Of a stretch of 64,000 nucleotides of DNA, positions 2,367 to 42,703 are shown one piece after another. Source of the stretch: an uncultured Clostridia bacterium. Its GTDB lineage: Bacteria; Bacillota; Clostridia; Oscillospirales; CAG-272. Location of the stretch: the NCBI GenBank assembly GCA_944384525.1, contig CALWTR010000016.1:4546-68545 (forward strand), given 5' to 3'. Position numbers and translations under genes: made by a program. Each line of letters starts with the position of its first letter. Within the stretch, counting starts at the first letter, position 1. The notes under the pieces are model-generated. The model ran no database searches, was not told where the DNA came from, and saw only the letters and a program-made list of their open reading frames with translations.

Positions 2367-3133
2367 AGCTCGTCAAGAGTCCCGAATCTGTACCCGAGTT
2401 TCTTCCACTCCCGGATAAGGTCGCCGAGTATAGCTGCATTTGTGGCAGACGTCGGATGCAGTAATATTATCTCTCCGTTATGGGTATTCTCCAGTATTTT
2501 TGTCTTAGCCGCATCAGGGTCCGGCTGTTTTTCGTTATCCCAGTCAGCATATGCAAAGCTCCAAAAAACCGTTTTATATCCAGCATCTGACGCACAAATA
2601 AGATTTTCCTCACTGTATTTGCCTTCCGGAGGTCTGTAATATTTTGCAAGCTCATAGCCGGTCTTTTCACGGTACAGATCCTCCAGCCGGCGCAGTTCAT
2701 CCGTCATTTGTTCCCTGCTGAATTTAGTCATATCCTTGTGCGAGCAAGTATGATTGCAAACGAGATTGCCATCCTCAGCCATGCGTTTTACAAGATCGGT
2801 ATTTTTTACGATAAGATGGGACAGCACAAAAAACGCGCCGTTTACCCCCTCCTCTTTCATCACATCAAGTATTTTTTCGATGTTTCCGTTTTCATATCCG
2901 GCATCGAACGTCAAGTATATGACACGGTCGCTGGAATCGTCAGAGACTTTAGGGTCAAGATAATACCCGCCGTGTTCAAGGATGATCTCCTGTGACGGAT
3001 CAAGTACAGGACGGCGTCCGCCGTTCCTCTTTATATACCAGCTTGCCGCACCGGCATTTCCGAATGACTGAAGCGTGAAAGATAGCATCAGGATACAAAA
3101 AAGCGGCAAAAAAAATATTTTTTTTATTTTCAT
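2363..3133 (-). CDS. pdaA: PdaA-like delta-lactam-biosynthetic de-N-acetylase (spore cortex)
   Basis: YLTFDAGYENGN...FFVLSHLI...NHTCSHKD...YYRPPEGKYS...VFWSFAYADW...ILLHPTS follows the B. subtilis PdaA motif order as I recall it. Signal peptide present. The symbol is tentative. Confidence 0.7.
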   Translation of the reverse strand: MKIKKIFFLPLFCILMLSFTLQSFGNAGAASWYIKRNGGRRPVLDPSQEIILEHGGYYLDPKVSDDSSDRVIYLTFDAGYENGNIEKILDVMKEEGVNGAFFVLSHLIVKNTDLVKRMAEDGNLVCNHTCSHKDMTKFSREQMTDELRRLEDLYREKTGYELAKYYRPPEGKYSEENLICASDAGYKTVFWSFAYADWDNEKQPDPDAAKTKILENTHNGEIILLHPTSATNAAILGDLIREWKKLGYRFGTLDEL

Positions 3134-3230
3134 GTTTTCACCTCGTTTCCTTACACTTTTATTTTCTTATTTGAGTCAGAAAATAACCGAGGTAAAAAAC
3201 GATATATTTGATAAAAAATCCATATACAAA

Positions 3231-3257
3231 ACAAAAAGACCGCTATCGCGGTCTTTT
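3231..3257 (-). terminator. rho-independent terminator of rpsU
   Basis: 8-bp stem AAGACCGC / GCGGTCTT (3236-3243 / 3248-3255). On the minus-strand RNA it is followed by UUUUUGU. Confidence 0.75.
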
Positions 3258-3271
3258 ATGCCATTATGCTA

Positions 3272-3448
3272 TTACTTATACTTGCGCTTTCTGGCTGCCT
3301 CAGATTTCTTCTTGCGCTTTACGCTGGGCTTCTCGTAATATTCTCTTTTACGAAGCTCAGTGAGGAATCCGGATTTCACGCAAGAGCGCTTAAATCTGCG
3401 AAGCGCGCTCTCGAGAGTCTCGTTTTCCTTGACCCTTATTTCTGCCAT
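3272..3448 (-). CDS. rpsU: 30S ribosomal protein S21
   Basis: [61 protein letters not shown] at 3448 is preceded by GGGAGGG. The longer track ORF (start 3472) would begin upstream of that SD. Confidence 0.95.
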
Positions 3449-3538: not shown

Positions 3539-3629
3539 TAGTTTTTACATTTTTTGATATATAAAATTGTATTTTTATTTAAGCTGAAGACAGACCAAGA
3601 AAATCTTATGTGACCAGTTGACCGCCAAG

Positions 3630-4535
3630 TCATCCGGATATCGTATAAGAAGCGCCCTTTCTCCTCTGTACACGACCTGAATGACGATGCTGTATCAAAG
3701 CGGCGCGTATCGTATTCATAAGAAGCATAGTTATCGTCATCGGGCCGACTCCTCCGGGAACAGGAGTTATTGCCGACGCCTTTTCCGCTACCTCTGCAAA
3801 AGCGACATCTCCGGTCAGTTTTCCGTCCTGACCTCTGTTGATCCCTACATCTATAACGACAGCTCCCTCTTTTATCATGTCAGCCTTTATAAATCCGGCT
3901 CTCCCTACGGCGGCAATAAGTATGTCCGCCGAACCCGTCATCTCAGAGATATTTACCGTCCTGGAATGGCAGATAGTCACGGTAGCGTTTTTTTCCAGCA
4001 TCAGAAGCGACACCGGTTTTCCTACTATATTGCTCCGCCCAACAACAGTGCATCTCTTGCCTGCGGGATCTATTCCGTAATATCTCAACAATTCCATTAT
4101 ACCCGCCGGTGTACACGGAAGAAAGTCGTGGCTGCCGTTTACCAGCTTGCCGACGTTTACGGGATGGAAGCAATCGACATCCTTTTCCGGAGAAATCGAA
4201 TACAAAACATCCCTTTCTTCTATCTGAGGCGGGAGAGGTAGCTGTACCAGGATACCGTTTACATCCGGATCACCGTTCAATTCGGATATTTTGTTTATCA
4301 GCTCAGTCTGCGAAATGTCTTCGGGCATAGCTATTATCGATGATCTCATGCCGCACTCGGCAAATGCTTTTGCCTTGTTTCTGACATACGTCTGAGATGC
4401 AGGATTATTTCCTACGATTATTACTGTAAGATTGGGGACGCTGCCTTTGAACATTTTGCGATAAAGTCTCACACGTTTTTTTATCCCTTCACGTATGACC
4501 GAAGAGACTTTTTTTCCATCTATCAAAGTCGCCAT
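3630..4535 (-). CDS. folD: bifunctional methylenetetrahydrofolate dehydrogenase / methenyl-THF cyclohydrolase
   Basis: MATLIDGKKVS..., LTVIIVGNNPASQTYVRNK, GILVQLPLP, PCTPAGIMELL, VVGRSNIVGKP and PVPGGVGPMTI are the classic FolD motifs. Confidence 0.93.
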   Translation of the reverse strand: MATLIDGKKVSSVIREGIKKRVRLYRKMFKGSVPNLTVIIVGNNPASQTYVRNKAKAFAECGMRSSIIAMPEDISQTELINKISELNGDPDVNGILVQLPLPPQIEERDVLYSISPEKDVDCFHPVNVGKLVNGSHDFLPCTPAGIMELLRYYGIDPAGKRCTVVGRSNIVGKPVSLLMLEKNATVTICHSRTVNISEMTGSADILIAAVGRAGFIKADMIKEGAVVIDVGINRGQDGKLTGDVAFAEVAEKASAITPVPGGVGPMTITMLLMNTIRAALIQHRHSGRVQRRKGASYTISG

Positions 4536-5395: not shown

Positions 5396-6685
5396 TCATC
5401 CCCTTTGCATAGTAGGTATAATTTTAGCTGTCACACAATTTTCTTCTTTGAAAACAGATAAACATTCCAAAACGTCGGAATATTTTATGGCAGAAAGCAT
5501 ATCCGGCTCCAAAAAAACATTATAACCGCTGAAATAAGAACGCATCATATCATTTGCTATGTCGTCAGTGCTGTCAAAAGAACGCACGCTTTCAGAATAG
5601 CGAGAGCGCCTGACACGCTCAAAATCATCCTTGCTGAAAGGCTTTCCAATTGCATTTTTTACTTCAGACAGCACTGCCTCTTTAAGCGCTTTATCATCGC
5701 CGCTTTCGTCAAAGATCATAACACTGCCGCAATCGGTATATTCGATATACTCGGCGGAAAAAGAGGAGGAAATAAGACCTTCCGCATACATTTTGTCATA
5801 GAATGCACTGCTCTTGCCGAAAAGCAGCTCACACAGTATCTCCATACATAAACTGCGTTTCAGCACATTTTTTGCCCCTGTCGGTATATCGTTGTCCTTG
5901 AACGCTATTGATACCATCGGTTTGGATATATCCATTTTAAGTTCGGCGTACTTTTCGTTTATTTCGTCCGGTTCATCCGGGCTCGTCAGAACAGCGGCAT
6001 CCCCGGCCTTTGCCGTGACTTTCCCGTCGACTATTGCCAAAACGCGTTCAGGCGATATATCTCCGCAGACGCAAAGCACCATATTTTCCGGCCGGTAAAA
6101 TGCATTATAGCAATTGTAAAGCAATTCAGGAGTTATTTCCGATATTGAGCTTACACTTCCGCAAATATTGTTTCTTACCGGATGATTCTTATAAAGAAGT
6201 TTCAGAGTGGCATAATAAAGCCTTGAAAACGGATTGTCGTCATACATTCCGATCTCCTGCGATATTATCCCCTGCTCTTTTTTTATATTTTCTTCGGTAA
6301 AATACGGGTCGTTCACGAAATCCAGAAGTACTCCGAGACATTTCTCGTGATCCTCTGCCGAAGAAAAAAGGTAAGCAGTATTAAGCGCAGATGTGTAGGC
6401 ATTTGCGCTGGCGCCGTATTCGGCATAAAGCTCAAATGCGTTCTTTCCGTTCTTACCCTCAAACATTTTATGCTCAAGAAAATGAGCAACTCCGTCGGGG
6501 ATCCGAAAATCTTTTCCGCCGACGGAAAAACGGTTGTTGACCGAACCGAATTTCACCGCGTATACCGCATAGAGTGAAGACATTTTCTTAGGAAATACCT
6601 GGACGGTAAGTCCGCTTTCGTGTTTGAGCGAGTAGAATTTTTCATTTAAAACAGCGTTCTCATATATTTCAAATTCACGCTTCAT
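5396..6685 (-). CDS. M16 (pitrilysin/insulinase) family zinc peptidase, catalytic subunit
   Basis: HFLEHKMFEG matches the HxxEH inverted zinc motif. I prefer the start at ATG 6685 (MKREFEIY), preceded by GAGGAGGA. It overlaps the upstream partner gene by 11 nt. Confidence 0.85.
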   Translation of the reverse strand: MKREFEIYENAVLNEKFYSLKHESGLTVQVFPKKMSSLYAVYAVKFGSVNNRFSVGGKDFRIPDGVAHFLEHKMFEGKNGKNAFELYAEYGASANAYTSALNTAYLFSSAEDHEKCLGVLLDFVNDPYFTEENIKKEQGIISQEIGMYDDNPFSRLYYATLKLLYKNHPVRNNICGSVSSISEITPELLYNCYNAFYRPENMVLCVCGDISPERVLAIVDGKVTAKAGDAAVLTSPDEPDEINEKYAELKMDISKPMVSIAFKDNDIPTGAKNVLKRSLCMEILCELLFGKSSAFYDKMYAEGLISSSFSAEYIEYTDCGSVMIFDESGDDKALKEAVLSEVKNAIGKPFSKDDFERVRRSRYSESVRSFDSTDDIANDMMRSYFSGYNVFLEPDMLSAIKYSDVLECLSVFKEENCVTAKIIPTMQRG

Positions 6686-7976
6686 CTTTTTCCTCCTCAA
6701 GCCCGGACGTTCCTGCTCCCCTAAGGAAAAACACAGTGTCAAGCTTTATACCGCGGGCAAATTCCGAGACTTTACCGGCATCCATTTTCATGATATCATC
6801 TGCCTTTTCCTCCGGAGTATAAAACTTTCCGCTGATCACTCTGTTGAAACACCAGTTCTCAATTGAAAACGGACTGTCGTTTATAGTCCTGTATATATCG
6901 TTCAGGGATTTCTTAGCGAAAAACATCTCCTCGTCTGTGATATCACCGCTTTTCACCGCATCAAGCTGGCGGAGTATCTCGGACTTAGCCGCTTTAAAAT
7001 TCGTATTATCTATTCCTGAAGATACGATTAGCACGCCCTTTAAATACTCAGGTACGCCTTGACAGTAATAGCAAAGGCTCAGCTTTTCCCGTACATTCAA
7101 AAACAGTTTGGAGACCGGAGACATACTGAATACCGCCATAAACAATGGTGCGGCATCGCACATAGCATCATAAGATGTACAGCCCAGGTCGAATCCCATG
7201 ACCATTTTCCCCTGAATTGCAGCCGCATCTTCCTGCGCCTCGTTCACCTTAACTGCCGCCTTACGCCTGACCTCCGGGAGAGCGGAATAATTTCTTTCAG
7301 AAAAGTGAAATTTTTCAGCAAAAATCTTTTCTATTTTTTCATGCGGCTCCGCGCCTATATAAAACGCCTCTATCCTTGCCTCCGAGAGAAACTTTTCGTA
7401 ATACGAGAAAAGCGTTTTCGGATCTATCCCGACAATGATCTTTTCACAGCCTTTCGGATTTACCGAGAAAGGATCTCCAGCAAACATATGCTCGACGCAT
7501 TTTTCCACCGCAAATGAGTTCTTGTTATTCCTCGTTGCGCGTATGCTGTCTATGAGCGTCTTTTTTTCCCTCTCAACATAAGCGGCAGAAAAAACTCCGT
7601 TTTCGGTATAGGGAGAAAATATCACTGAAGAAAGCAGTGATATCGCCTGCTCGGTTATATTTCCGCCATCGCCCATCGAGTATTTGCTGTCCAGCATTGC
7701 TATTGAAAATGAGACGGACTGATAATCGCCGACCTTAACTGAGGAGCTGAAAAGCTCCATGCCGTACAGCTCCTGAAGTCGTCTGCTAATCTCGCGTATC
7801 GTCGGCAGTTCTGCTGTACCGCATTTCAGCACATTCGGTATGAGGGCATAATATGATGCGGTCTTCTCCGACAGCGGCAGAATAAACTTGACGGTGAAAA
7901 CCGCCGTTTTGAATTTATCTGTACATATAGTATTTACATACTCACCATCGGAAATTTTTTTCCTCTTATAATCCAT
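6675..7976 (-). CDS. M16 family peptidase-like protein lacking HxxEH (probable non-catalytic partner)
   Basis: Length and C-terminal region are insulinase-like, with no HxxEH motif. ATG at 7976 lies 5 nt after GGAGG; the GTG at 7982 in the track overlaps that SD. Confidence 0.75.
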   Translation of the reverse strand: MDYKRKKISDGEYVNTICTDKFKTAVFTVKFILPLSEKTASYYALIPNVLKCGTAELPTIREISRRLQELYGMELFSSSVKVGDYQSVSFSIAMLDSKYSMGDGGNITEQAISLLSSVIFSPYTENGVFSAAYVEREKKTLIDSIRATRNNKNSFAVEKCVEHMFAGDPFSVNPKGCEKIIVGIDPKTLFSYYEKFLSEARIEAFYIGAEPHEKIEKIFAEKFHFSERNYSALPEVRRKAAVKVNEAQEDAAAIQGKMVMGFDLGCTSYDAMCDAAPLFMAVFSMSPVSKLFLNVREKLSLCYYCQGVPEYLKGVLIVSSGIDNTNFKAAKSEILRQLDAVKSGDITDEEMFFAKKSLNDIYRTINDSPFSIENWCFNRVISGKFYTPEEKADDIMKMDAGKVSEFARGIKLDTVFFLRGAGTSGLEEEKDEA

Positions 7977-8063
7977 GTACACCTCCGGACAAAAACAGCT
8001 TTTTGCGATTTATTTTCCCGCAATGTTTATTCTACCTTGCAGAGGATCAATTATAAGGCGATT

Positions 8064-9725: not shown

Positions 9726-9835
9726 CTTCACACTCCGTAATATTTAATTATCAGTATACAGTTATTTCTACGTCCGGAAAAATAAATTCTTCCTGACTAA
9801 GCCTGTATCACGCCGTAAGCTAACTTACATATAAT

Positions 9836-9864
9836 ATTATATAACCGCATCCGGAAAAAGTCAA
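9836..9864 (-). promoter_or_regulatory. candidate sigma-A promoter of the PRPP-synthetase-like gene
   Basis: On the minus strand: TTGACT (9864-9859), 17-nt spacer, TATAAT (9841-9836). Predicts a leader of about 100 nt. Confidence 0.55.
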
Positions 9865-9958
9865 GTTCATATATGAAATAAAATATCGTCGTGGATGACA
9901 GCCGAAGTGCTGTCTGTCACACGCTCCAATCAAGAACTCTAACATAAGGAGAAAGCAG

Positions 9959-10390
9959 ATGAAAATCGAAAAAAGCGTAGCTAATGAGGCAGAGACGTTT
10001 GGTTACCTTACGGTACGGGTGTTCGGCGCCGGGGGCAGTATCCCTATCGAGGGAGCAAATGTACGAGTCAGCGGCAATGATGAATCAAACAAGGACGTAA
10101 TTTACTCCGTCGTGACCGACAGAAGCGGAAAAACCCCGAAACTTAAGCTTCCGGCGCCTCCTGTACGCTACTCACTGAGCCCGAATTCGGAACAAGTACC
10201 GTTCTCTACATACAATGTGCAGGTAATACTGGAAGACTATTACGAAAACAGCACCAGTAATATACCGATATTTGCCGGAATATCATCGATCCAGTCCATA
10301 GTGCTTATAGGAAAAGCCCCTTACGACTCATCCAACTATTACCCTCGCGGCAATGTTGACATCGTCGAGTCGGAAAACAAAGAATTGTGA
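9959..10390 (+). CDS. small Ig-like (carboxypeptidase-regulatory-like) protein resembling the N-terminal pre/pro region of clostridial SleC
   Basis: FGYLTVRVFGAGGSIPIEGANVRVSG...SGKTPKLKLPAPPVRYSLSP...YNVQVILEDYYE. AGGAGA SD upstream. Ends at a TGA that is in frame with the next cistron (see findings). Confidence 0.7.
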   Translation: MKIEKSVANEAETFGYLTVRVFGAGGSIPIEGANVRVSGNDESNKDVIYSVVTDRSGKTPKLKLPAPPVRYSLSPNSEQVPFSTYNVQVILEDYYENSTSNIPIFAGISSIQSIVLIGKAPYDSSNYYPRGNVDIVESENKEL

Positions 10391-10399
10391 GGATCCGCC

Positions 10400-11800
10400 A
10401 TGCGCCCCTTATATCCTGTAATACCTACAAATATAACAGTCCACCTGGGCGCTCCGGATGAAGACGCCCAAAATGTCACTGTGCCGTACGATTATTATTT
10501 AAAGAACGTTGCTTCCAGCGAGATATACCCTACCTGGCCGGAAAACGCCATCAGAGCTAACATTTATGCTCAGGCATCATTCGCACTCAACCGGATCTTC
10601 ACTGAGTACTACCGAAGTCAAGGCTATGATTTCGACATAACGAATTCCACAGCTTATGACCAGTATTTCGTATACGGACGTGATATATTTGAAAACATAT
10701 CAGAGATCGTCAATGATCTGTATGATTCATATATCAGGCGCACAGGCTTTATAGAACCGCTGTTTGCACAGTACTGTGACGGTATAAACGTAACATGTGA
10801 AGGTCTGTCTCAATGGGGTACCGTGGATCTGGCAGAACAAGGATTTACACCCTTTGAAATACTTAAATATTACTACGGAGACGATATAGAGATCGTAACC
10901 AATGCGGAGGTGAGTGGTATAACCGAAAGTGCACCTACTAACAGCTATTCTATCGGTTCCGCCGGAAATTCGATAAGGCAGATCCAGATCCGGCTCAATC
11001 GCATATCAAAAAATTATCCGGCTATACCAAAGATATACCCTGTCGATGGTATATTCGGCATCGAAACGGAAAACGCCGTAAAAGCCTTTCAGGAAATATT
11101 CGGACTTGATCCCGACGGTATCGTAGGACGGGTAACATGGTATGAGATACAGTTCGTATATAATGCCGTCAAGCGGCTAAATGATCTGAATTCAGAGGGG
11201 ATCACACTTGAGGATATCGACAAGCAATTCAGCGAAAAGCTCAAAAAAGGTGATGAGGGACTCGGGGTCCTGGTCCTGCAACATTTTCTTGACTATATTT
11301 CGGATTTCGTACCCACTGTTACCCCGGTAACGGTAGATGGTTCATTCGGCGACACAACGGAAAATTCTGTCCTTTCATTTCAACAAACATACGGTCTTAC
11401 TCAAAACGGCGAGGTCGACGGTAACACCTGGGACGTTATCTACAACGTATATCTCGGACTGATCGAATCTCTGCCGCTGGTATATACCGAAGGAACTGTT
11501 TTGCCTTTCCCGGGTCGTATACTCAGAGAGGGGATAACCGGAGACGATGTGAGGCTGCTTCAAAATTATCTCAATTACATTGCCGATACTTACACTTCAA
11601 TACCGAAAATAACTCCTGACGGAGATTTCGGTCCCGCAACGACCGCCGCCGTCAAGGCCTTTCAGTCCCTGTTCGGCATAGTCGGTACGCCGGGTACAGT
11701 ATCAAGCGTTACCTGGAACGCTATCACGAACGTATACGAGGACCTTTATACTGCGTCACTCGTAAATGAGGGACAATATCCGGGTTATGAAATATCATAG
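10400..11800 (+). CDS. SleC-like spore cortex-lytic enzyme core with three C-terminal PG_binding_1 repeats
   Basis: NITVHLGAPDEDAQNVTVPYDYYLKNVASSEIYPTWPENAIRANIYAQASFALNRIFTEYYRSQGYDFDITNSTAYDQ...LFAQYCDG...GLSQWG matches the SleC/SpoIID-like core as I recall it. Three repeats of DG.FG..T..AV..FQ..FGL...G.V...TW. ATG lies 6 nt after GAGGA. Confidence 0.75.
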   Translation: MRPLYPVIPTNITVHLGAPDEDAQNVTVPYDYYLKNVASSEIYPTWPENAIRANIYAQASFALNRIFTEYYRSQGYDFDITNSTAYDQYFVYGRDIFENISEIVNDLYDSYIRRTGFIEPLFAQYCDGINVTCEGLSQWGTVDLAEQGFTPFEILKYYYGDDIEIVTNAEVSGITESAPTNSYSIGSAGNSIRQIQIRLNRISKNYPAIPKIYPVDGIFGIETENAVKAFQEIFGLDPDGIVGRVTWYEIQFVYNAVKRLNDLNSEGITLEDIDKQFSEKLKKGDEGLGVLVLQHFLDYISDFVPTVTPVTVDGSFGDTTENSVLSFQQTYGLTQNGEVDGNTWDVIYNVYLGLIESLPLVYTEGTVLPFPGRILREGITGDDVRLLQNYLNYIADTYTSIPKITPDGDFGPATTAAVKAFQSLFGIVGTPGTVSSVTWNAITNVYEDLYTASLVNEGQYPGYEIS

Positions 11801-11808
11801 GAGGTATT

Positions 11809-12336
11809 ATGTACCCTGTAACAGATAAAAAAGCCGCGATACGCGAGATACAAAAATATTTACTTGAGATCTCTGCCATACAGCCGGAGCTTCCTCATCT
11901 TGTCATAGACGGAGTATACGGCGATCTGACGCGGCAGACAGTTATAAAATTTCAGGAGCTCAACGGTCTTGAACCGACGGGAAAAGTAAACTACGAAACT
12001 TTTACTCTTATGTACGCGCAGTATACGACCGCAAAGAAAAGCAGGACTGAAGAAACTGAGCTGATCGATCGGGACAGCTTCCCTTTTCAAAGCGGTGACA
12101 GCGGCGATGACGTAGCGATCATAAATTCTATCCTTACGTCCCTCAGGAACTATTATCCGGATATAGGCAGAGTAACAAGCGGAAATTATTACTCGCGCAG
12201 GAGCGCATATGCAGTGGCATATATGCAAAAAATATTCGGTTATCCCCAAACCGGTATCACGGATATCCAAACCTACAACAGTCTGTTCCGGGAGCTCAAT
12301 TCAAGAAACACGATAAAAAATTCTACCTATCTTTGA
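11809..12336 (+). CDS. peptidoglycan-binding domain protein (PG_binding_1, one clear and one degenerate repeat)
   Basis: DGVYGDLTRQTVIKFQELNGLEPTGKVNYETF and a second, weaker repeat AYAVAYMQKIFGYPQTGITDIQTY. GGAGG SD. Lies 8 nt after the preceding gene. Confidence 0.7.
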   Translation: MYPVTDKKAAIREIQKYLLEISAIQPELPHLVIDGVYGDLTRQTVIKFQELNGLEPTGKVNYETFTLMYAQYTTAKKSRTEETELIDRDSFPFQSGDSGDDVAIINSILTSLRNYYPDIGRVTSGNYYSRRSAYAVAYMQKIFGYPQTGITDIQTYNSLFRELNSRNTIKNSTYL

Positions 12337-12430: not shown

Positions 12431-14851
12431 ATGAACAGCAGATTCACTGACAGGGCGGAAGCCGCCCTGAGCGAAGCGCTCAATGCGGCGCAGGATCTTG
12501 GTCACACCTACATCGGAAGCGAGCACATACTCATGGGACTGTGCGCGGCGGAGTTCTCATGCGCGAGAGATATAATAACCAAAAACGGTCTGACATTTGA
12601 AAAAATATTCGATACAGTCAAAGAATTTTCCGGTCAAGGAACAAAGAATATCCTGAGCGCCAAAGATATGACGCCGAGGACCCGACATATACTTGAACAG
12701 TCACATATAATTTCTCTGAGATACGGAAGTCCTAAGATCGGCACAGAACATTTACTGCTTGCATTGCTTTCGGAAAAAAGCTGTGTCGCAGTAAAGATCA
12801 TAGCTTATATAGGTGCCTCGGCTGAAAACATGAAGGAAGACGTCATAGCTTTTTTGCGTTCTTTCGATAAAAGTGAAACTTCAGTCAAAAAAGAAGCCCC
12901 CTCAAAAACCTCCGCACTCGCGGTATACGGCAAGGATCTTACCGCTCTGGCCGCAGCCGGCAAACTCGACCCTGTGATAGGCCGTGAAAAAGAGACGCAA
13001 AGGCTGATAAGGATACTGTCAAGGCGCAGTAAAAACAATCCTTGTCTCGTGGGAGAAGCAGGCGTCGGAAAGACTGCCGTGGTCGAGGGGCTGTCACAAA
13101 GGATATTCAAAGGCGATGTTCCGGACTCTCTCAAAGAAAAAAGGATAATTTCCATAGACATATCCTCAATGGTCGCGGGAGCAAAATATCGGGGAGACTT
13201 TGAGGATCGTATAAAAAACGTACTTCGTGAAGCATCCGAGGACAAAAACGTCATACTTTTTATTGATGAGATACACACGATAGTAGGAGCCGGAGGCGCA
13301 GAGGGGGCGATAGATGCGGCAAATATACTCAAGCCGCCGCTTGCCCGCGGTGAAATACGTCTTATAGGTGCAACTACGATAAGCGAATACAGAAAATATA
13401 TCGAGAAAGACTCGGCACTCGAGCGAAGATTCCAGCCGCTGAATATTGAAGAACCGAGCGGTCAGGAAAGCATAGAGATAATAAAAGGCTTGCGTCCGCT
13501 TTACGAAAAGCATCACAACGTTGTTCTTACAGATGAGGCTCTTGAAAGCGCAGTTAAACTCTCGGAGCGATATATAAACGACAGATATCTGCCGGACAAA
13601 GCGATCGATATAATTGACGAAGCTTGTGCAAAAAGCAAAGTATTTTATGTTGATGACGATCAAAAAATTAAAAATATGCGAAATAATATACGGCAGATAG
13701 AAATAAAAAAAGAAAACGCCGTAAAAATTCAAGATTTTCGCACGGCTGAGGAACTGCACGAGAATGAACGCATCGCAACAGAGGAGCTGGAAAAGCTTGA
13801 GGCGGTATCAAATCACGGAGCGTCTCCGATAAAAATAGATGAAAAGGCGATACGCGATATAATAACAGAGCTGACCGGTATACCGTCATCCTCCATCGAA
13901 GAAGACGAATCCTCTTCCCTTGCCACTTTGGCGGAAAGGCTGAAAAAAAGGATAATAGGTCAGGATGAGGCTATAAACGCAGTCGCTCATGCTATAATCA
14001 GAAATCGCGCCGGACTGTCGCCGCTCGAGCGCCCTATCGGGTCATTTATATTCGTAGGTCAAAGCGGCGTAGGAAAGACCGAGCTGGCAAAATGTCTTGC
14101 CGAAGAGATATTCGGCCGAAAAAGTGATATAATAAAATTCGATATGTCTGAATATATGGAAAAGCACAGCGTTTCCAAACTGATAGGCTCCCCTCCGGGA
14201 TATGTAGGATACGGAGAAGGCGGAATGCTGACTGAACAGGTGCTGCGGCATCCGTATTCCCTGCTGATTTTTGACGAGATAGAGAAGGCACATCCGGATA
14301 TACCGGATATATTGATGCAAATACTGGACGACGGGTATCTTACTGACTCCGGAGGCCGTCGTGTCAATTTCAGAAATACTATTATTATAATGACTTCAAA
14401 TATAGGATCAGACACGATCCTTGACAGTAACTCCGCAGGCTTTCTCAGAGCTGAGGGAGAGCTCCCCGGCGAGAATGCGGTCATAAAAGAACTCAAAACG
14501 CATTTTAAAAATGAATTCATAAATCGTATAGACGAGATAGTTCTCTTTAAGCCTTTGAGTCGAGAGTCACTGATAAAAATATGTACTTCTCTTCTATCGG
14601 GACTTTCAGAGCAGATGAAGGACAACGGATTCGATATCATGATCGGGGGCGGAGTCGCCGAATTCATCGTAGACAAAATAAGTTCCAGATCTTTCGGCGC
14701 ACGTCCGCTGAGACGACTTATATCAAAATATATATCGGACAAAATAAGTGAGGAAATAGTTACCGGCAACGTATTACCGGGAGAAGAACTTATTTTAACT
14801 GCCGGCGATAAAGGTATTGAGATAAGCAGAGCTCACACAGCAACTATATAA
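12431..14851 (+). CDS. clpC: ATP-dependent Clp protease ATP-binding subunit ClpC (class I Clp/Hsp100, two AAA+ modules)
   Basis: Clp_N repeats (YIGSEHILMGL, KIGTEHLLLAL). Walker A motifs GEAGVGKTA and GQSGVGKTE, Walker B motifs ILFIDEIH and LLIFDEIEKAH. 806 aa. Confidence 0.92.
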   Translation: MNSRFTDRAEAALSEALNAAQDLGHTYIGSEHILMGLCAAEFSCARDIITKNGLTFEKIFDTVKEFSGQGTKNILSAKDMTPRTRHILEQSHIISLRYGSPKIGTEHLLLALLSEKSCVAVKIIAYIGASAENMKEDVIAFLRSFDKSETSVKKEAPSKTSALAVYGKDLTALAAAGKLDPVIGREKETQRLIRILSRRSKNNPCLVGEAGVGKTAVVEGLSQRIFKGDVPDSLKEKRIISIDISSMVAGAKYRGDFEDRIKNVLREASEDKNVILFIDEIHTIVGAGGAEGAIDAANILKPPLARGEIRLIGATTISEYRKYIEKDSALERRFQPLNIEEPSGQESIEIIKGLRPLYEKHHNVVLTDEALESAVKLSERYINDRYLPDKAIDIIDEACAKSKVFYVDDDQKIKNMRNNIRQIEIKKENAVKIQDFRTAEELHENERIATEELEKLEAVSNHGASPIKIDEKAIRDIITELTGIPSSSIEEDESSSLATLAERLKKRIIGQDEAINAVAHAIIRNRAGLSPLERPIGSFIFVGQSGVGKTELAKCLAEEIFGRKSDIIKFDMSEYMEKHSVSKLIGSPPGYVGYGEGGMLTEQVLRHPYSLLIFDEIEKAHPDIPDILMQILDDGYLTDSGGRRVNFRNTIIIMTSNIGSDTILDSNSAGFLRAEGELPGENAVIKELKTHFKNEFINRIDEIVLFKPLSRESLIKICTSLLSGLSEQMKDNGFDIMIGGGVAEFIVDKISSRSFGARPLRRLISKYISDKISEEIVTGNVLPGEELILTAGDKGIEISRAHTATI

Positions 14852-14876: not shown

Positions 14877-14903
14877 AAAAAGCCCCGCATATGCGGGGCT
14901 TTA
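14877..14903. terminator. bidirectional terminator shared by clpC (+) and the tRNA operon (-)
   Basis: Perfect palindrome AGCCCCGCAT/ATGCGGGGCT (14881-14900). AAAA upstream gives a U-run for the minus-strand tRNA transcript. Only a TT(AAAT) tail on the plus side. Confidence 0.75.
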
Positions 14904-29168: not shown

Positions 29169-31127
29169 TCAATTGTGCTTCTGCCTTGATTTTAATATAT
29201 AATTTACGAAATTATCCTCTGTTTCCGTTTTTACTATAAATGCTTCAGATCCGCCCAGTGAAATGGACGTACCACTTTTCAGCTTTTGCGTGGATATCTC
29301 TATTTTTATGCTTTTGCCGAAAGTAAAACAGCATTCAGAATTTGAGTTGTTGACAGCAGTGATATAGGAATATTTACCGTAGCGACGCTCAAAAATGAGT
29401 ATTTCGGGCGTGAGCTCCAGTATCCTGAATTCGCCGAAAACAAATGCTCTCTTTCCGCGTCTGAAGGCGTTGATCTTTCGAAAGAACTCCAAAAGATCTG
29501 TGTTTTCGCGCCCCCACGGGAACGGCATGCGATTGAATGGGTCGGAATATCCCTGCATCCCTGCCTCATCGCCGTAATATACCGTTGGTATTCCGGGTAC
29601 AGCGGACAAAATCATATAAGCGCATTTGAGCATTTTGCATGCTGCATCGTATTTATCGCTGCTCATCCTGGTGATCGCCAAAACGCTGTTAGGAACACCG
29701 TTTGCGCTGTCACCGCCCAGAGCCGTCAAAATTCTGACCGTGTCATGAGTCCCGAGCAGATTCATCTGCCCGTCGCGGATCCTTTTTGGCATATTCGGCA
29801 TGACTTCAGTAAGCGCATATACTAATTTATCAGTTTTTTTATCGCGTATATATTCTATTATCCCGCTTCTGAGCGGATAATTCATAACTCCGTCCAGTTC
29901 CTCGCCGAGATAATAGCGCTTGCGTTTATCGTATGCCACCTTATTAGAGGCGTCCTCCCATACCTCGCCGTACAGTACCGAGCGCTTGTCGTAACTGTTG
30001 AGTGTGCGCTTTATATCGGATACAAAGCTATCCGACAGCTCGTCAACAACGTCAAGTCTAAAACCCCAGATACCTTTTTTAGCATAATGTGCTATGACTC
30101 CGTCCCTGCCCACAAAGAATTTGCGGCAGGAGGGTCTGTCCGGGTGTATACGCGGCAATATCTTAATACCCCACCAGCAGGAGTACTCATCCGGATATCT
30201 TATAAATTCATACCAATCATAATACGGCGACTTTTTTGAATTATATGCTCCAACAGACGGATATTTGGAATACTTATTGAAATATATGCTGTCGTCTCCG
30301 GTATGATTGAAGACCCCATCAAGAATTATGCGTATCCCTGCCTCTCCCGCTTTCTCTATAAGGAGATCGAGCGCCTTATCGCCTCCGAACATTTCGTCAA
30401 CAGTCAAATAGTCCCCGGTATCGTATTTATGATTTGAATACGCCTTGAAAACAGGGCTGAGATATATCGCTCCGACGTTCAGCGACTTAAGATATTCAAG
30501 TTTTTCAATGATGCCGTATAGCGTTCCGCCGAAAAACATATTATTTTCAAGATGCGCGCCCGGTCGCTCAGGATACTGCGGTATACCGCCGTACCAATCC
30601 TCATTCATGATCGCATCTTCTCTGATCGGTACTTCCCCGCCGCGGCGGAATCTATCTACAAAAATATGATATATTATACCTCCGTTCAAGGAGTGCGGCG
30701 CATTGTACCGGAAATCGGAAAATGAGAGCTGAAATGCAAAAGGCGCGCCGGAGTCCTCAGTAAATCCGACGCGGTTTCCGAACTCTCTGGCGGCGTAAAT
30801 TTTTTGACCGTCAAAGGTAAAAAAGAAAAATCGGAAAAAATACAGTCCCTCGTGTGTTACGGGATGCGATACGTTTATACCGTACTGATCGAAAGATCCC
30901 TTCAAGCCGGTCCATTCCATAGGGAAAGCCAGCACTCCGCCGGTGTGCGCATCTTTTACCTCAAAATAGACGTCATGAGCGCCAGCGCTGCGCGGAATTT
31001 CCAGAATGAGCAAAGGCTCATCTCCACACTCAAACGCGCGTGATAAAGTTAACTCACCGTCAAGGGCGAAAGCTATCGAGCCTCCGCCCTGCGGCGCAGA
31101 ATAGGGTACGAATCTGTCGCAGTACAA
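29169..31127 (-). CDS. glycoside hydrolase family 13 protein (neopullulanase / amylopullulanase-like alpha-glucan hydrolase)
   Basis: GH13 conserved regions are DGVFNHTG, GFRLDVVDE, GEVWED and LLGTHD. TTG start lies 6 nt after GGGGG and 3 nt after the glgP stop. Confidence 0.85.
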   Translation of the reverse strand: MYCDRFVPYSAPQGGGSIAFALDGELTLSRAFECGDEPLLILEIPRSAGAHDVYFEVKDAHTGGVLAFPMEWTGLKGSFDQYGINVSHPVTHEGLYFFRFFFFTFDGQKIYAAREFGNRVGFTEDSGAPFAFQLSFSDFRYNAPHSLNGGIIYHIFVDRFRRGGEVPIREDAIMNEDWYGGIPQYPERPGAHLENNMFFGGTLYGIIEKLEYLKSLNVGAIYLSPVFKAYSNHKYDTGDYLTVDEMFGGDKALDLLIEKAGEAGIRIILDGVFNHTGDDSIYFNKYSKYPSVGAYNSKKSPYYDWYEFIRYPDEYSCWWGIKILPRIHPDRPSCRKFFVGRDGVIAHYAKKGIWGFRLDVVDELSDSFVSDIKRTLNSYDKRSVLYGEVWEDASNKVAYDKRKRYYLGEELDGVMNYPLRSGIIEYIRDKKTDKLVYALTEVMPNMPKRIRDGQMNLLGTHDTVRILTALGGDSANGVPNSVLAITRMSSDKYDAACKMLKCAYMILSAVPGIPTVYYGDEAGMQGYSDPFNRMPFPWGRENTDLLEFFRKINAFRRGKRAFVFGEFRILELTPEILIFERRYGKYSYITAVNNSNSECCFTFGKSIKIEISTQKLKSGTSISLGGSEAFIVKTETEDNFVNYILKSRQKHN

Positions 31128-31130
31128 AGC

Positions 31131-33596
31131 TTACCCCCTGACAGGCTTTATGTGCCATATCTCGTCGGCATATTTTTTTATGCTGTTGTCGGACGCAAAT
31201 ACGCCGCTTGACGCTATATTTACGAGCGAACGTCTGTTCCAGTTATCCTTATCGTAATAATTGTGCACAGCCTTATCATAAGAGCAACGATAGGAATCAA
31301 AATCAGCCAGACACATAAAGGGATCGGCGACGCTGTAACCGCCGTTTATTAGATAATCGGCTATTTCCGAGAAATTCTCCCCTCCTATCGGACAGTTGAG
31401 ACGATCTATGACTTTCCGTATCTTTTCAGAATTATGATAGAACTCTCTTGCCTCGTATCCGTTTCTCCAGAGTTCCTCGACTTCATAGGTGTTGAGCCCG
31501 AAAATATATATATTGTCGTGCCCTACCGCCTCAAGTATTTCAACGTTCGCGCCGTCGAGCGTCCCTATTGTAAGCGCGCCGTTCATCATCAGCTTCATGT
31601 TTCCGGTACCGCTCGCCTCTTTGCCAGCAAGCGATATCTGTTCCGACAGATCGGCCGCGGGGATCAGTATCTCTGCAAGAGAAACGTTGTATTCCTCCAT
31701 GAACAGCACCTTGAGCTTGTCGCGGGTTAGCGGATTGTTTTCAAGCTCCTGACCCAGAAAATATATCAACTTTATGAGCTTTTTAGCCATTACATAGCCC
31801 GGAGCCGCCTTGCAGCCGAAAATAAAGGTCTGAGGCGGGATATCCGCATTCGGATTCTCAAGCATCTCATTATAAAGAGAGAGTATCTTCAAGACATTGA
31901 GGAGCTGACGCTTATATTCATGCATTCTCTTGATCTGAACGTCGAAGATTGATTCAGGAGAAATGACCTTTCCTGTCTTTGCCTTTACATAATCAGAGAA
32001 ACGTATCTTATTGGAATGCTTGATTTCTCCTATGCGCGACAGCACCGACTTATCATTCTCAAACTTTTTGAAGTTATCAAGAAGAGATGCATTTTCTCTG
32101 TATTCCGGCCCGATGCATTCATCAAGTAAGGAGCATAGCTCGGGATTGGAATAGGCGAGCCAGCGTCTGTGAACTACACCGTTCGTAACGTTTGTGAATT
32201 TCCACGGCGTCATTTTATAAAAGTCATGGAAAACGTTCTTTTTGAGTATATCGCTGTGAAGCTTTGAAACTCCGTTTACTGTATGCGAACCGACTATACT
32301 GAGATTTGCCATACGGACCTGACCGTACGCAACGATCGCCATTCTTGAGATGCGGTCCCAGTCACCCGGATAAAGATCCCAAAGATCGGCGCAGAAGCGC
32401 TTGTTTATCTCCTCGACTATTGCATATATTCTCGGGAGTTTCATCTTGAAAAGATCTATTCTCCAGCACTCGAGAGCCTCTGGCAGGACGGTATGATTCG
32501 TATAGGATACCGTTTTGCAAACTATCTCCCAGGCGCGATCCCATGAAAACGAATATACGTCCATAAGAATACGCATGAGCTCCGGTATGCAAAGAGCCGG
32601 GTGGGTATCGTTAATGTGTATCGCTATCTTATCTGAAAAGCTTTCAAGCGTGCCGTAGGCGGCAAAATGATCGCTCAGTATGCTCTGGAGAGACGCGGAT
32701 ACAAGGAAATACTGCTGGGTCAAACGAAGGAGCTTCCCCTCGTCGTAATTATCCGGGGGATAGAGCTGCCTTGTTATCTCTTCCGCTTTATTAGTATCAT
32801 TGAGATGTTTTATATATTTACCCTGTGAAGAAAAATCAGACGTATATTTCTGTACGTCCTTAGCGCGCCAAAGCCTTATGGTGTTGACGGCGTCTGTTTC
32901 TGTCCCCGGGATCAGAAGGTCGTAAGGAACGGCCCTGACCTCATCAAATTCTGTATGGTTTATACGGAGCTCCCCGCTTGACCAATCCTCCTGTACTCTT
33001 CCGCCGAATCTTACGGAAACGCTTTTTTCCGGCTTAGGGATGAGCCATGCTCCGCCTTTAGGTATCCAAACGTCGGGAAGCTCGACCTGTTCTCCGTCAA
33101 CAAGCTTTTGCTTAAAGAGTCCGTTTTCGTAACAGAGAGAATAGCCGTTGGCTACATAATCAAGCGCCGACAGTGAGTCCATGAAGCAGGCGGCGAGCCT
33201 TCCGAGTCCGCCGTTACCGAGACCTGGATCCACCTCATTATCGAAAACGTCGTCAAAGGTAGTGCCGTAATCCTTGAGTATAGTGCAAAGATCATCGTAT
33301 ATGCCGAGATTTTTTGCATTGTTTTTAAACGAACGGCCGATCAAAAACTCCATGCATAAATAGCATACCTTTTTGCTGTCCGCCGCCCTGGATCTGCGCA
33401 CGAAATTTGTTCTGTTTTCGATAAGGATATCTTTCATCGCATTGACGGACGCATGGTACAGCTGCTCCGTCGTTGCAGACTGAGGGTCGGATATTCCCCT
33501 CGCGTATAGCTTGCTCTCGATCCTTTCCTTCAGATCGCCGATAGAGATTGCGGGTCTCTTCCCGCTGATAAGGTTATCCTGGGGTTTAGTTTTCAT
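31131..33596 (-). CDS. glgP: glycogen/starch/alpha-glucan phosphorylase
   Basis: 821 aa. EFLIGR, GLGNGGLGRLAACF and the PLP site EASGTGNMKLMMNGALTIGTLDGANVE are present. Confidence 0.95.
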   Translation of the reverse strand: MKTKPQDNLISGKRPAISIGDLKERIESKLYARGISDPQSATTEQLYHASVNAMKDILIENRTNFVRRSRAADSKKVCYLCMEFLIGRSFKNNAKNLGIYDDLCTILKDYGTTFDDVFDNEVDPGLGNGGLGRLAACFMDSLSALDYVANGYSLCYENGLFKQKLVDGEQVELPDVWIPKGGAWLIPKPEKSVSVRFGGRVQEDWSSGELRINHTEFDEVRAVPYDLLIPGTETDAVNTIRLWRAKDVQKYTSDFSSQGKYIKHLNDTNKAEEITRQLYPPDNYDEGKLLRLTQQYFLVSASLQSILSDHFAAYGTLESFSDKIAIHINDTHPALCIPELMRILMDVYSFSWDRAWEIVCKTVSYTNHTVLPEALECWRIDLFKMKLPRIYAIVEEINKRFCADLWDLYPGDWDRISRMAIVAYGQVRMANLSIVGSHTVNGVSKLHSDILKKNVFHDFYKMTPWKFTNVTNGVVHRRWLAYSNPELCSLLDECIGPEYRENASLLDNFKKFENDKSVLSRIGEIKHSNKIRFSDYVKAKTGKVISPESIFDVQIKRMHEYKRQLLNVLKILSLYNEMLENPNADIPPQTFIFGCKAAPGYVMAKKLIKLIYFLGQELENNPLTRDKLKVLFMEEYNVSLAEILIPAADLSEQISLAGKEASGTGNMKLMMNGALTIGTLDGANVEILEAVGHDNIYIFGLNTYEVEELWRNGYEAREFYHNSEKIRKVIDRLNCPIGGENFSEIADYLINGGYSVADPFMCLADFDSYRCSYDKAVHNYYDKDNWNRRSLVNIASSGVFASDNSIKKYADEIWHIKPVRG

Positions 33597-33611
33597 ATTA
33601 CATCCATTCTG

Positions 33612-35039
33612 TTAGTTAAGTTTATTGTATATTTCGAGATATTTCTCCGCGGAGTTCTTCCATGAGAAATCCGACCTCATAGCCCGCCTTACAAGTTTGC
33701 ACCATTCCTTTTCTTTATCAGTATATAAATGCAGAGCATCTTTGACCTTGAAAAGCAACTCATGAGCGTTGAAATTATTGAAGACAAAGCCATTTGAGTT
33801 CTTGGCACCGTAAGGTATTATGCTGTCATACAGCCCGCCGACGGCCCTGACGATCGGTATTGTTCCGTAAGAGCACGCTATCATCTGGGCAAGTCCGCAC
33901 GGCTCGCTCTTGGATGGCATAAGGAAAATATCCGACGAGGCGTATATCTTCTTCGAGAGAACTCTGTCAAAGCGTATGAGAGCGCGTGCCCTGTCGGGAT
34001 GCCTTGCACAGATCGAGGAGAATATTTCCTCGTATTTCTTGTCTCCGGTACCGAGAATGACGAACTGAACATCAAGCTCAAGCAACTCGTCAAGGATATG
34101 GAGAACAAGGTCTACACCCTTTCCGGAGGTCAATCTGGTTATCATGGAGATAAGCGGCTTTTCCGTAGCCACCGGGAGTCCGAGCTCTTCCTGAAGCGCC
34201 GCTTTATTTTTCTTTTTCCCCTCAAATACGTCCATCACTCCGTAAGGATATGCGATATCTCCGCCCTTCTTCGGTGAAAAGTACTTGTAGTCTATGCCGT
34301 TTATGACACCGCTCATCTTGCCCCAGCACATATTTATTATGTTCTCAAGCCCAAAGGCGAAGAAGCTGTTTCTTAACTCACACGCATAATTCGGACTTAC
34401 AGTAGTTATTGCATCCGAAGTAACGAGAGCGCCTTTAAGAAGGTTTATGGAGTTTCCGAATCTCATAATATCGAGATACTTCGCGTCAAGAGAAAATACG
34501 TCTCCGAGAATATACGGATCGTATTTACCCTGATACTCTATATTATGTATTGTAAATACGGTTTTTATATCCTTAAAAGCCTCATAAGAGGAAAATTCTG
34601 TTTTCAGGTATACGACCGACAGCGCGCTCTGCCAATCGTTGGCATGAAGAATATCAGGCACATTTCCGCTCTGAAGCATGAACTGTACGACTGCCATCGA
34701 AAAAAACGCGAATTTCTCCCCGTCATCGTAATCGCCGTAGAGCGACTTCCTCTTGAAATAATAATTATTTTCGACGAAATAATAAGTCACTCCGCTGTTT
34801 TTAAGAGAATATATCGATGCTCCCGTATCTCTCCAGGAGAGTTTGAAAGAAATATCGATGACCTTTTTCATTTTCTTACGGTACTTTTCACAAGCACTGT
34901 ACAGCGGGAGTATTACTCCTACTTCTGTATCCGGAGAGCACTTCTTTATAGCTATCGGAAGCGCGCCCATCACGTCCCCCAGCCCTCCGCTCGCCGCATA
35001 GGGAGCGGCCTCGCTGGTGACATAAAGTATCTTGTTCAT
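33612..35039 (-). CDS. glgA: glycogen synthase (ADP-glucose type)
   Basis: ILYVTSEAAPYAASGGLGDV, HANDWQ and MPSKSEPCGLAQM are present. 1-nt overlap with the glgD stop. Confidence 0.95.
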   Translation of the reverse strand: MNKILYVTSEAAPYAASGGLGDVMGALPIAIKKCSPDTEVGVILPLYSACEKYRKKMKKVIDISFKLSWRDTGASIYSLKNSGVTYYFVENNYYFKRKSLYGDYDDGEKFAFFSMAVVQFMLQSGNVPDILHANDWQSALSVVYLKTEFSSYEAFKDIKTVFTIHNIEYQGKYDPYILGDVFSLDAKYLDIMRFGNSINLLKGALVTSDAITTVSPNYACELRNSFFAFGLENIINMCWGKMSGVINGIDYKYFSPKKGGDIAYPYGVMDVFEGKKKNKAALQEELGLPVATEKPLISMITRLTSGKGVDLVLHILDELLELDVQFVILGTGDKKYEEIFSSICARHPDRARALIRFDRVLSKKIYASSDIFLMPSKSEPCGLAQMIACSYGTIPIVRAVGGLYDSIIPYGAKNSNGFVFNNFNAHELLFKVKDALHLYTDKEKEWCKLVRRAMRSDFSWKNSAEKYLEIYNKLN

Positions 35040-37341: not shown

Positions 37342-37352
37342 AATGAAGCTCC

Positions 37353-39251: not shown

Positions 39252-39382
39252 CACACCCCTTATATTTTTCATTATCCTAAATTTTAGCACAAATCCGCTG
39301 TCGAATAAGGTTAAAAGCAGAATAAGAGTTAAATATATTGTGAGCTTTACTTCATATTAAGATACAGTTTTAATATATACTA

Positions 39383-42679: not shown

Positions 42680-42703
42680 ATCCGTGCCCTCCAATACACA
42701 ATA

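Follow-up and report, generated by a model that had tools for sequence, protein, structure and literature searches.

Is a gene for the spore cortex-lytic enzyme SleC that is interrupted by a stop codon a broken gene, or has one protein been divided into several that are made together? This question is raised by a stretch of 64,000 nucleotides (nt) from an uncultured Clostridia bacterium of the Oscillospirales lineage CAG-272 (assembly GCA_944384525.1, contig CALWTR010000016.1, positions 4,546 to 68,545), which we call the window. Two adjacent open reading frames (ORFs) on its forward strand, ORF A and ORF B, resemble the N-terminal region and the enzymatic core of SleC, respectively, and a TGA codon embedded in a Shine-Dalgarno (SD) sequence lies between them. 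The original prediction, made from the nucleotide sequence, regarded this as deliberate translational coupling and named a decayed sleC gene as the alternative. Comparison with related loci led us to favor the first explanation. The locus probably represents an old functional fission of a SleC-type cortex-lytic enzyme, in which the pre-pro polypeptide of fused relatives is encoded as translationally coupled cistrons. The cistrons and their junctions are arranged as follows.

9946-9952, forward strand: SD sequence of ORF A, AAGGAGA, with 7 nt from the end of GGAG to the ATG at 9959.
9959-10390, forward strand: ORF A, ATG start, 143 amino acids, a putative stand-alone SleC 'pre' domain with the start of the pro-peptide.
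10388-10393, forward strand: TGA stop codon of ORF A (10388-10390) overlapping the SD sequence of ORF B, GAGGA (10389-10393).
10400-11800, forward strand: ORF B, ATG start, 466 amino acids, a SleC-like lytic transglycosylase core with three PG_binding_1 domains.
11798-11804, forward strand: TAG stop codon of ORF B (11798-11800) overlapping the SD sequence of ORF C, GGAGG, with 4 nt to the ATG at 11809.
11809-12336, forward strand: ORF C, the third cistron, 175 amino acids with two PG_binding_1 domains detected by Pfam.

On re-reading the sequence, the coordinates, the position of the stop codon within the SD sequence and the peptides quoted in the original prediction were all found to be exact. 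GAGGA and the ATG at 10400 are separated by 6 nt (tccgcc). The TGA at 10388 is followed by only three sense codons (GGA TCC GCC) before this ATG, which is thus the earliest possible start of ORF B. Stop-to-start gaps amount to 9 nt between A and B and 8 nt between B and C, and the B/C junction repeats the design of the A/B junction (TAGGAGG-N4-ATG). At both junctions the stop codon lies in or near the SD sequence and the next start codon, as in translationally coupled operons, and this geometry suggests putative coupling of A, B and C. ORF A and ORF B share one reading frame (both starts are 2 mod 3), which the original prediction had pointed out. The shared frame proved to be a coincidence, as relatives use all frames as well as overlapping stop and start codons. 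Adjacent ORFs on the same strand share a frame by chance in one of three cases, and the A/B geometry by itself is statistically unremarkable. The noteworthy feature is the homology of the products to both halves of SleC together with the conservation of the split. An identical TGA/GAGGA/ATG junction was present in an independent metagenome assembly (locus L003, ERZ17292902), accompanied by silent or nearby substitutions, and an NCBI record (P0003) contained an identical ORF B product of 466 amino acids. Both observations make an assembly error at 10388 very unlikely.

ORF B aligns with the enzymatic part of SleC. In a phmmer comparison its residues 6-264 matched residues 217-477 of the protein chain 9h68 with an E value of 1.9e-75, and about half of the aligned residues were identical across the core and the first peptidoglycan (PG)-binding domain. 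The entry 9h68 is described as 'Spore cortex-lytic enzyme pre-pro-form' and corresponds to the zymogenic form of SleC from Clostridioides difficile (CD630_05510). The domain organization of ORF B consists of a SpoIID/LytB-like region (approximately residues 1-175) and three PG_binding_1 domains (approximately residues 189-248, 284-346 and 383-447), with the Pfam SpoIID model scoring 24 bits, just over its cutoff. Homologues of ORF B are abundant. At least 8000 proteins were retrieved at E<=1e-10, and the best 120 of them were 463-475 amino acids long and aligned with 98-100% coverage and 59-100% identity.

ORF A was related to the N-terminal part of the same enzyme. Residues 15-114 matched residues 61-162 of the 9h68 chain, equivalent to SleC residues 4-105, with an E value of 8.6e-8 (phmmer). 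Such similarity of the 143-residue protein to the SleC N-terminal region had been named as a check on the original prediction, and it was found. An AlphaFold2 model of ORF A built from 23 homologues reached a mean pLDDT (predicted local distance difference test) score of 84.6 and divides the protein into two parts.

9995-10303, forward strand: residues 13-115 of ORF A, a transthyretin/CarboxypepD_reg-like beta-sandwich according to the predicted model and Foldseek.
10304-10387, forward strand: residues 116-143 of ORF A, a C-terminal tail ending in NVDIVESENKEL.

The modeled domain comprises seven strands and one short helix with pLDDT values mostly above 90. Its top match among PDB structures in a Foldseek search was 9h68 (E value 2e-9, TMq 0.69, root-mean-square deviation 1.7-2.6 Å), followed by transthyretin-like and carboxypeptidase-D regulatory-like domains. 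The Ig-like or carboxypeptidase-regulatory-like character that had been assigned to the upstream product was thus specified as a transthyretin-like beta-sandwich homologous to the SleC N-terminal region by phmmer, model and Foldseek alike. The end of the tail, NVDIVESENKEL, is the counterpart of a conserved pro-peptide motif, SELIFDIGEHTL, at residues 121-132 of C. difficile SleC. In the stand-alone model the tail had pLDDT values of 55-62, with low confidence for residues 121-143.

Family databases gave little information on ORF A. A Pfam scan yielded no match at E<=0.01, and the comparison with NCBIfam returned a weak match to hydroxyisourate hydrolase. PF13620 was recorded for one homologue and matched one fused relative weakly, below the Pfam cut-off. 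The pre domain of C. difficile SleC has been assigned to DUF3869/PF12985 (bioRxiv 2022.02.25.481979). As ORF A has no Pfam match, its link to the SleC pre domain rests on the direct comparison with SleC. A single-sequence word search with ORF A recovered only two homologues and was replaced by a local jackhmmer search over the loci and by profile searches. These searches also revealed a large subgroup of ORF A proteins from Ruminococcus (P0137, P0139, P0163, P0188 and others; loci L060, L062, L063 and L072) that is devoid of the pro-motif tail. Members of this subgroup keep the beta-sandwich and are extended at the N-terminus by about 40 conserved residues (MYRDYLNS...GE(S/T)PFR.EYE.YIR.YPGRG).

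Where does the break fall relative to the known processing sites of SleC? A fused relative aligned to 9h68 exposed the chain segment PRTRSKRSFSRQSELIFDIGEHTLYGTYPPKIPESNLKPLPPPTGFVVLDNPVVPEFIVVHDG. The YabG site of C. difficile SleC, located after R119, is SRQS/QSELI (PMC6464247; bioRxiv 10.1101/2024.06.10.598338), and its position in the 9h68 chain shows that chain numbering equals SleC numbering plus 57. Accordingly, P6 of ORF B is P160 of SleC, which places M1 of ORF B at about residue 155. The downstream product hence begins at the mature SleC core, as the original prediction had proposed. When 64 split forms were aligned with 18 fused forms and C. difficile SleC, a motif at the start of the pro-peptide was common to SleC (F-D-I-G-E-H-T-L, residues 125-132 in C. 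difficile) and all fused forms (I-x-P-H-x-L in the version of the fused relatives). Almost half of the ORF A-type proteins (30 of 64), including that of the window, end at this pro motif, at the equivalent of C. difficile L132. Fused forms vary in the linker that joins the pro motif to the first core strand (C. difficile residues 133-154), which spans about 20 to over 100 low-complexity residues. In split forms this linker is absent. ORF B-type proteins start 9-16 residues, mostly 10-11, before the ITVHLG strand, which is the equivalent of C. difficile 155-156.

The pro-peptide of Clostridium perfringens SleC reportedly has a length of 35 residues, in work ascribed to Miyata in 1995 and Urakami in 1999. 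PreproSleC of this species is cut after R114 (PMC6464247). By arithmetic from R114/R119 and this pro-peptide length, the mature N-terminus generated by Csp would be situated near residue 155 in C. difficile. The alignment suggests that the cistron boundary coincides with the pro/mature (Csp) junction and not with the pre/pro (YabG) site, and that ORF A corresponds to the pre region plus the beginning of the pro region and ORF B to the mature enzyme. The original idea that the break falls about where processing occurs was therefore correct for the pro/mature junction and incorrect for the pre/pro site, since ORF A still contains pre domain, loop and first pro motif. The single covalent pre-pro polypeptide that characterizes SleC is not encoded in the window and 67 related loci, where a stop codon and a new start codon intervene.

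The distribution of the split arrangement was examined in 80 loci, one genome per species, plus the loci collected earlier, in which the A-type domain was sought by a local iterative search. An A-type domain was located directly upstream of the core in 87 of 87 loci, 68 of which were split and 19 fused in the same open frame. P0002, which is only 39% identical to ORF A, is a stand-alone protein of 136 amino acids whose stop codon overlaps the start of the core gene in a different frame (GAGGAtcttgaaTAATG, TAATG). Split junctions overlapped by 1, 4, 8, 11 or 17 nt or were separated by gaps of 0-42 nt. The two genes shared a frame in 21 of the 68 split loci and differed in 47, which is the one-in-three expectation for chance. 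A well-spaced SD sequence preceded the core gene in nearly all split loci and often contained the stop codon (TGAGG, TAAGGAG, TAGGAG). In the contigs sampled the gene order was a divergent prs gene, the small ORF, the core gene, a small PG_binding_1 gene and a clpC-like ATPase gene.

Both cistrons are under purifying selection. For 15 moderately diverged pairs, the ratio of non-synonymous to synonymous substitution rates (dN/dS) ranged from 0.04 to 0.20 for ORF A and from 0.02 to 0.13 for ORF B. An exhaustive profile search detected 3444 representative A-type proteins, 2441 of them at E<=1e-10. The best 150 of the 3444 were 127-448 amino acids long, carried the domain at the C-terminus and were all stand-alone. 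Where such proteins had a name, it was 'hypothetical protein'. When C. difficile SleC was used to root a neighbor-joining tree of the core, all split forms except locus L067 grouped in one clade. Fitch parsimony required two changes between split and fused states on the full tree and two to five in bootstraps, compared to about 17 with shuffled labels. Strict monophyly of the split clade was recovered in 20 of 100 bootstraps. Together with the Fitch counts this value leads us to speak of one or a few fissions rather than of a single event, and the tree indicates that these fissions are old and were inherited by a large group. Record labels within this group included Ruminococcus, Oscillospiraceae, Acutalibacteraceae, Eubacteriales and others. 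The view of a conserved coupled cistron pair instead of a fresh nonsense mutation was thus borne out by the L003 junction, by the split state of 68 of the 87 loci and by the low dN/dS values.

Several loci deviated from the common arrangement. Only one 'split' locus, L067, falls outside the split clade. It is placed amid the fused loci L070 and L078, has a TTG start without SD sequence and seems to carry a frameshift inside the linker. Its split state is probably due to a sequencing error or a pseudogene. In L067 and the fused loci L059, L070 and L078, which form an Angelakisella-like subgroup, the pro motif is connected to the core by a Pro/Ala/Gly-rich low-complexity linker that exceeds 100 residues. 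In L069 (864-3764) and L071 (1327-4227), labeled Sedimentibacter sp. and Firmicutes UBA1047, a tandem pair of B-type core genes, whose open frames are 3 nt apart, lies behind one A-type ORF. L074 harbors two A-type ORFs (2940-3275 and 3569-3922) upstream of one core gene. The A/B gap in this locus is 42 nt, and no SD sequence was found at the junction by a simple rule. Operon-carrying loci were also labeled Barnesiella intestinihominis, 'Tenericutes', Erysipelotrichaceae or Holdemania (L088, L086, L075 and L081). The Barnesiella label, which denotes a member of the Bacteroidota, looks like an error in the binning of a metagenome-assembled genome or in labeling.

The third cistron is part of the same conserved arrangement. 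In 40 of 64 split loci, ORF B is followed immediately by a homologue of ORF C, with gaps mostly below 20 nt. Fused relatives (L052, L055, L058, L076 and others) are proteins of 622-1366 amino acids with three to five PG_binding_1 domains. Taken together, A, B and C comprise 784 amino acids with five PG_binding_1 domains and are colinear with the fused 792-residue protein of L058 over residues 15-679. With 23-43% identity, the repeats of ORF C resembled all pairs of PG_binding_1 repeats to about the same degree. ORF C may have arisen by a second fission or have been added later. Group II Clostridium botulinum possesses SleC2a and SleC2b, proteins of about 700-790 amino acids with a SpoIID/LytB domain and four to five PG-binding domains (PMC5083711). 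According to this published description of their domain content, they and the fused relatives resemble the window in combining an N-domain, the core and three to five PG_binding_1 domains. They are single polypeptides, whereas the window distributes the same content over three cistrons. A single SleC2-like protein of about 700-790 residues is absent from the window, but fused relatives such as the L058 product (792 residues, five PG_binding_1 domains) are of this type.

As sleC belongs to the sigma-K regulon of C. difficile (PMC6878958), the region upstream of ORF A is of interest. It contains one candidate promoter.

9810-9836, forward strand: candidate sigma-K-like promoter, AC-N16-CATATAATA, 122 nt upstream of the ORF A start, identified as a consensus match.

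The pattern AC-N15-17-CATAnnnTA preceded ORF A in 12 of 63 split loci, compared to 1.0 expected from shuffled sequences (maximum 5), and was present in the closest relatives of the window (L003, L004, L005, L007 and L010). No sigma-70-like promoter was found on the forward strand between prs and ORF A, and no terminator-like site was found on this strand inside or between A, B and C. Reading of both sequences revealed no signal-peptide-like start on ORF A or ORF B, which fits synthesis in the mother cell. A Peptidase_S8 domain, as expected for a subtilisin-like Csp protease, was not found among the ORFs of at least 500 amino acids in the window. Likewise, a crude motif test for the catalytic triad D[TS]G...HG[TS]...G[TS]Sx[AS]xP was negative for all ORFs of at least 250 amino acids in the window and 88 loci (784 kb). 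At the level of these loci, as distinct from whole genomes, csp is unlinked to the split and related forms.

These data can be combined in the following model. ORF A, ORF B and ORF C would be co-transcribed in late sporulation, probably from a mother-cell sporulation promoter, and coupling would provide matched amounts of A and B that are made together. A may bind B non-covalently and supply the function of the pre/pro region in trans, as a folding helper and/or as an inhibitor or targeting module. Activation at germination might then consist in the release or degradation of A, possibly by proteolysis, or in control at the level of the substrate. Since no peptide bond connects the pro region to the core, a Csp cut at the pro/mature junction would not be available as the activating event. 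The suggestion of the original prediction that the N-domain acts in trans, as chaperone or inhibitor, and that activation would be Csp-independent is in line with this model. A more specific version is no more than a tentative proposal, which we consider rather less likely to be right than wrong. In a large clade of Clostridia from gut and rumen, the spore would store A and the already 'mature' B, helped by C, as a non-covalent complex, and dissociation or destruction of A, not a Csp cut, would trigger germination.

Four other explanations were weighed against this model. A sleC gene in decay, with a recent nonsense mutation at 10388, or else an error of sequencing or assembly at this site, would account for two ORFs that are in frame and only three sense codons apart. 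It would also agree with the continuous frame in the 19 distant fused loci and with the appearance of L067 as a frameshifted fused gene. Continuous ORFs in relatives had been regarded as a sign of such a mutation. They do exist, but only in the separate and more distant fused group, whereas the close relatives are all split and an independent assembly has the same junction. Furthermore, the best 120 of the at least 8000 ORF B homologues have the length of ORF B, junctions in other frames or with overlaps (TGATG, GTGA, TAATG) cannot be produced by a single nonsense mutation, and the low dN/dS of ORF A and the thousands of stand-alone A-type proteins speak against decay. The comparative data thus refute the decayed sleC alternative, and the chance that this explanation applies is close to negligible. 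Programmed readthrough or re-coding of the TGA would deliver full-length pre-pro-SleC as one polypeptide. In its favor, the TGA is in frame, the spacer measures 9 nt and the product would continue as ...KEL-X-GSA-MRPL...; TGA is also the leakiest stop codon. In contrast, a shared frame is seen in split loci at chance frequency, and many of these loci have out-of-frame overlaps of 1, 4 or 8 nt. Nearly all loci provide ORF B with an ATG of its own and an SD sequence at a suitable distance, and neither selection for frame nor a conserved recoding signal was apparent. Readthrough is very improbable.

The remaining two explanations accept the split and concern its role. ORF A could be functional and coupled to ORF B and yet not regulate its activity, serving as a targeting or scaffolding module or as a folding helper that is discarded after assembly. 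ORF B would then be held in check by the state of its substrate or by another factor, possibly Csp- or YabG-type proteases acting on ORF A. Full-length C. difficile SleC has reportedly shown activity toward cortex fragments in vitro (PMC4619724), and according to the title of Okamura 2000, as cited in PMC3567191, C. perfringens requires the prepeptide to produce active enzyme. Both reports are compatible with such a role, as are the Ruminococcus subgroup, which lacks the tail, keeps the beta-sandwich and gains an N-terminal extension, and the predicted disorder of the tail in the stand-alone model. On the other hand, 30 of 64 split loci retain the pro motif at the very end of ORF A, and the motif also occurs in all fused forms and in C. 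difficile SleC, which suggests that it has a function. The comparative data do not separate chaperone, inhibitor and targeting roles, and we regard a purely non-regulatory ORF A as a minor but realistic possibility. Alternatively, the locus might encode a SpoIID-like wall-remodeling enzyme of vegetative cells or of the sporulation stage, in hosts that possibly do not sporulate, and have no part in germination. The neighboring genes are prs, an Rrf2 regulator and a clpC-like ATPase, with no sporulation genes among them, the match of a SpoVB-like gene in the window is below cutoff, and some carriers are regarded as non-sporulating. However, the closest characterized relative by far is SleC (E value 1.9e-75) and not SpoIID (24 bits in Pfam). 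An extracytoplasmic vegetative hydrolase would need a signal peptide, which is missing from A and B, and a sigma-K-like motif is present upstream of ORF A where no sigma-70-like site was found. A role outside germination is therefore unlikely.

Several points weigh against the favored explanation of an old functional fission with A acting in trans. Co-transcription, the A-B interaction and the role in germination are suggested by homology. The evidence within the window for sporulation of the source organism is thin, as the only sporulation-flavored gene noticed there apart from the SleC-like operon is a SpoVB-like flippase-family gene (41096-42694, reverse strand), which matched TIGR02900 with 169 bits against a cutoff of 372. 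Ruminococcus flavefaciens, one of the carriers, is usually described as non-sporulating. The position of the Csp-generated N-terminus in C. difficile was derived by arithmetic, and the bootstrap value for strict monophyly is weak evidence for a single origin. The pro motif is missing in the tail-less Ruminococcus subgroup, so that an inhibitory role of the tail cannot be general. The in vitro activity of full-length C. difficile SleC implies that the pre/pro region may not inhibit even in cis. The inhibitory role of A is the least secure step of the proposed mechanism.

How does the arrangement compare to known systems? SleC of C. difficile and C. perfringens shares with the window the pre beta-sandwich, the motif at the start of the pro-peptide, the lytic transglycosylase core, the first PG_binding_1 domain and the lack of a signal peptide. 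A sigma-K-type promoter is plausible for the window. In these species SleC is one polypeptide that is cut by YabG after R119 (C. difficile) or R114 (C. perfringens) and then by Csp at the pro/mature junction (PMC6464247, PMC3567191). In the window, pre/pro region and core are separate gene products and the linker expected to carry the Csp site is missing. C. difficile SleC contains one PG_binding_1 domain (bioRxiv 2022.02.25.481979), compared to three in ORF B and two in ORF C. The csp operon is described in PMC3567191.

In both model species cspB or cspBA-cspC adjoin sleC, whereas no linked csp gene was found among the ORFs scanned in the window and the related loci. Precedents for action without a covalent link exist. 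The lipase-specific foldase Lif of Pseudomonas and Burkholderia is a steric chaperone encoded by an adjacent gene. The prodomain of subtilisin and CspB stays bound non-covalently after autoprocessing (PMC3567191, PMC13434707) and in this respect would resemble the proposed ORF A. Neither the prodomain nor Lif has any sequence or fold relationship to ORF A, whose interaction with ORF B is itself presumed. In Bacillus, SleB-YpeB and CwlJ-GerQ are cases in which the gene of a cortex-lytic enzyme adjoins that of a separate partner protein and the enzyme depends on this partner for stability, localization or control (PMC5083711, PMC13393411). These proteins and folds are unrelated to those of the window, and the partners do not derive from the pro-region of the enzyme.

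A description of a split sleC was not found in the literature searched, where SleC is one multidomain protein. The components, namely SleC, PG_binding_1 domains and translational coupling, are known. New within that literature is the placement of the pre/pro region on a separate, conserved and coupled gene across a very large clade. Gene fission is common as such; here it would have occurred at the regulatory cleavage site of a germination zymogen.

Some further features of the window were recorded. A ClpC-like AAA+ ATPase gene (12431-14851; Clp_N, two AAA modules and ClpB_D2-small) lies after A-B-C, an order also seen in the four neighborhoods inspected (L003, L004, L005/L006 and L007/L008). 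Just past this gene is a GC-rich palindromic hairpin, AAAGCCCCGCATATGCGGGGCTTT (14879-14902). On the reverse strand, 5396-7982 contains two adjacent overlapping genes for M16-family peptidases, one with an active-type N-domain and one with an inactive domain only, which resemble a heterodimeric pitrilysin-like pair. An apparent carbohydrate-storage cluster at 29169-39290 (reverse strand) encodes an alpha-amylase-family enzyme, a carbohydrate phosphorylase and a CBM48/alpha-amylase protein, and includes three further ORFs of 375-475 amino acids between these genes, at 33612-37341.

In the best-studied clostridia, germination has its committed step in the activation of SleC, which in C. difficile is also a drug target. 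What the pre and pro segments do is debated, as the prepeptide is needed for active enzyme in C. perfringens, judging from the title cited in PMC3567191, whereas full-length C. difficile SleC is reported to be active in vitro (PMC4619724). A natural split offers a trans system in which the roles of both segments can be dissected. It would also allow thousands of 'hypothetical proteins' of about 130-260 amino acids (A) and of 'peptidoglycan-binding proteins' (B) to be named as SleC-like halves. If the model holds true, a stored A-B complex would be a way of arming SleC that is independent of a protease site. The data suggest that many abundant spore-formers of gut and rumen control cortex lysis in a manner unlike that of the model pathogens, which bears on the transmission of commensal Clostridia.

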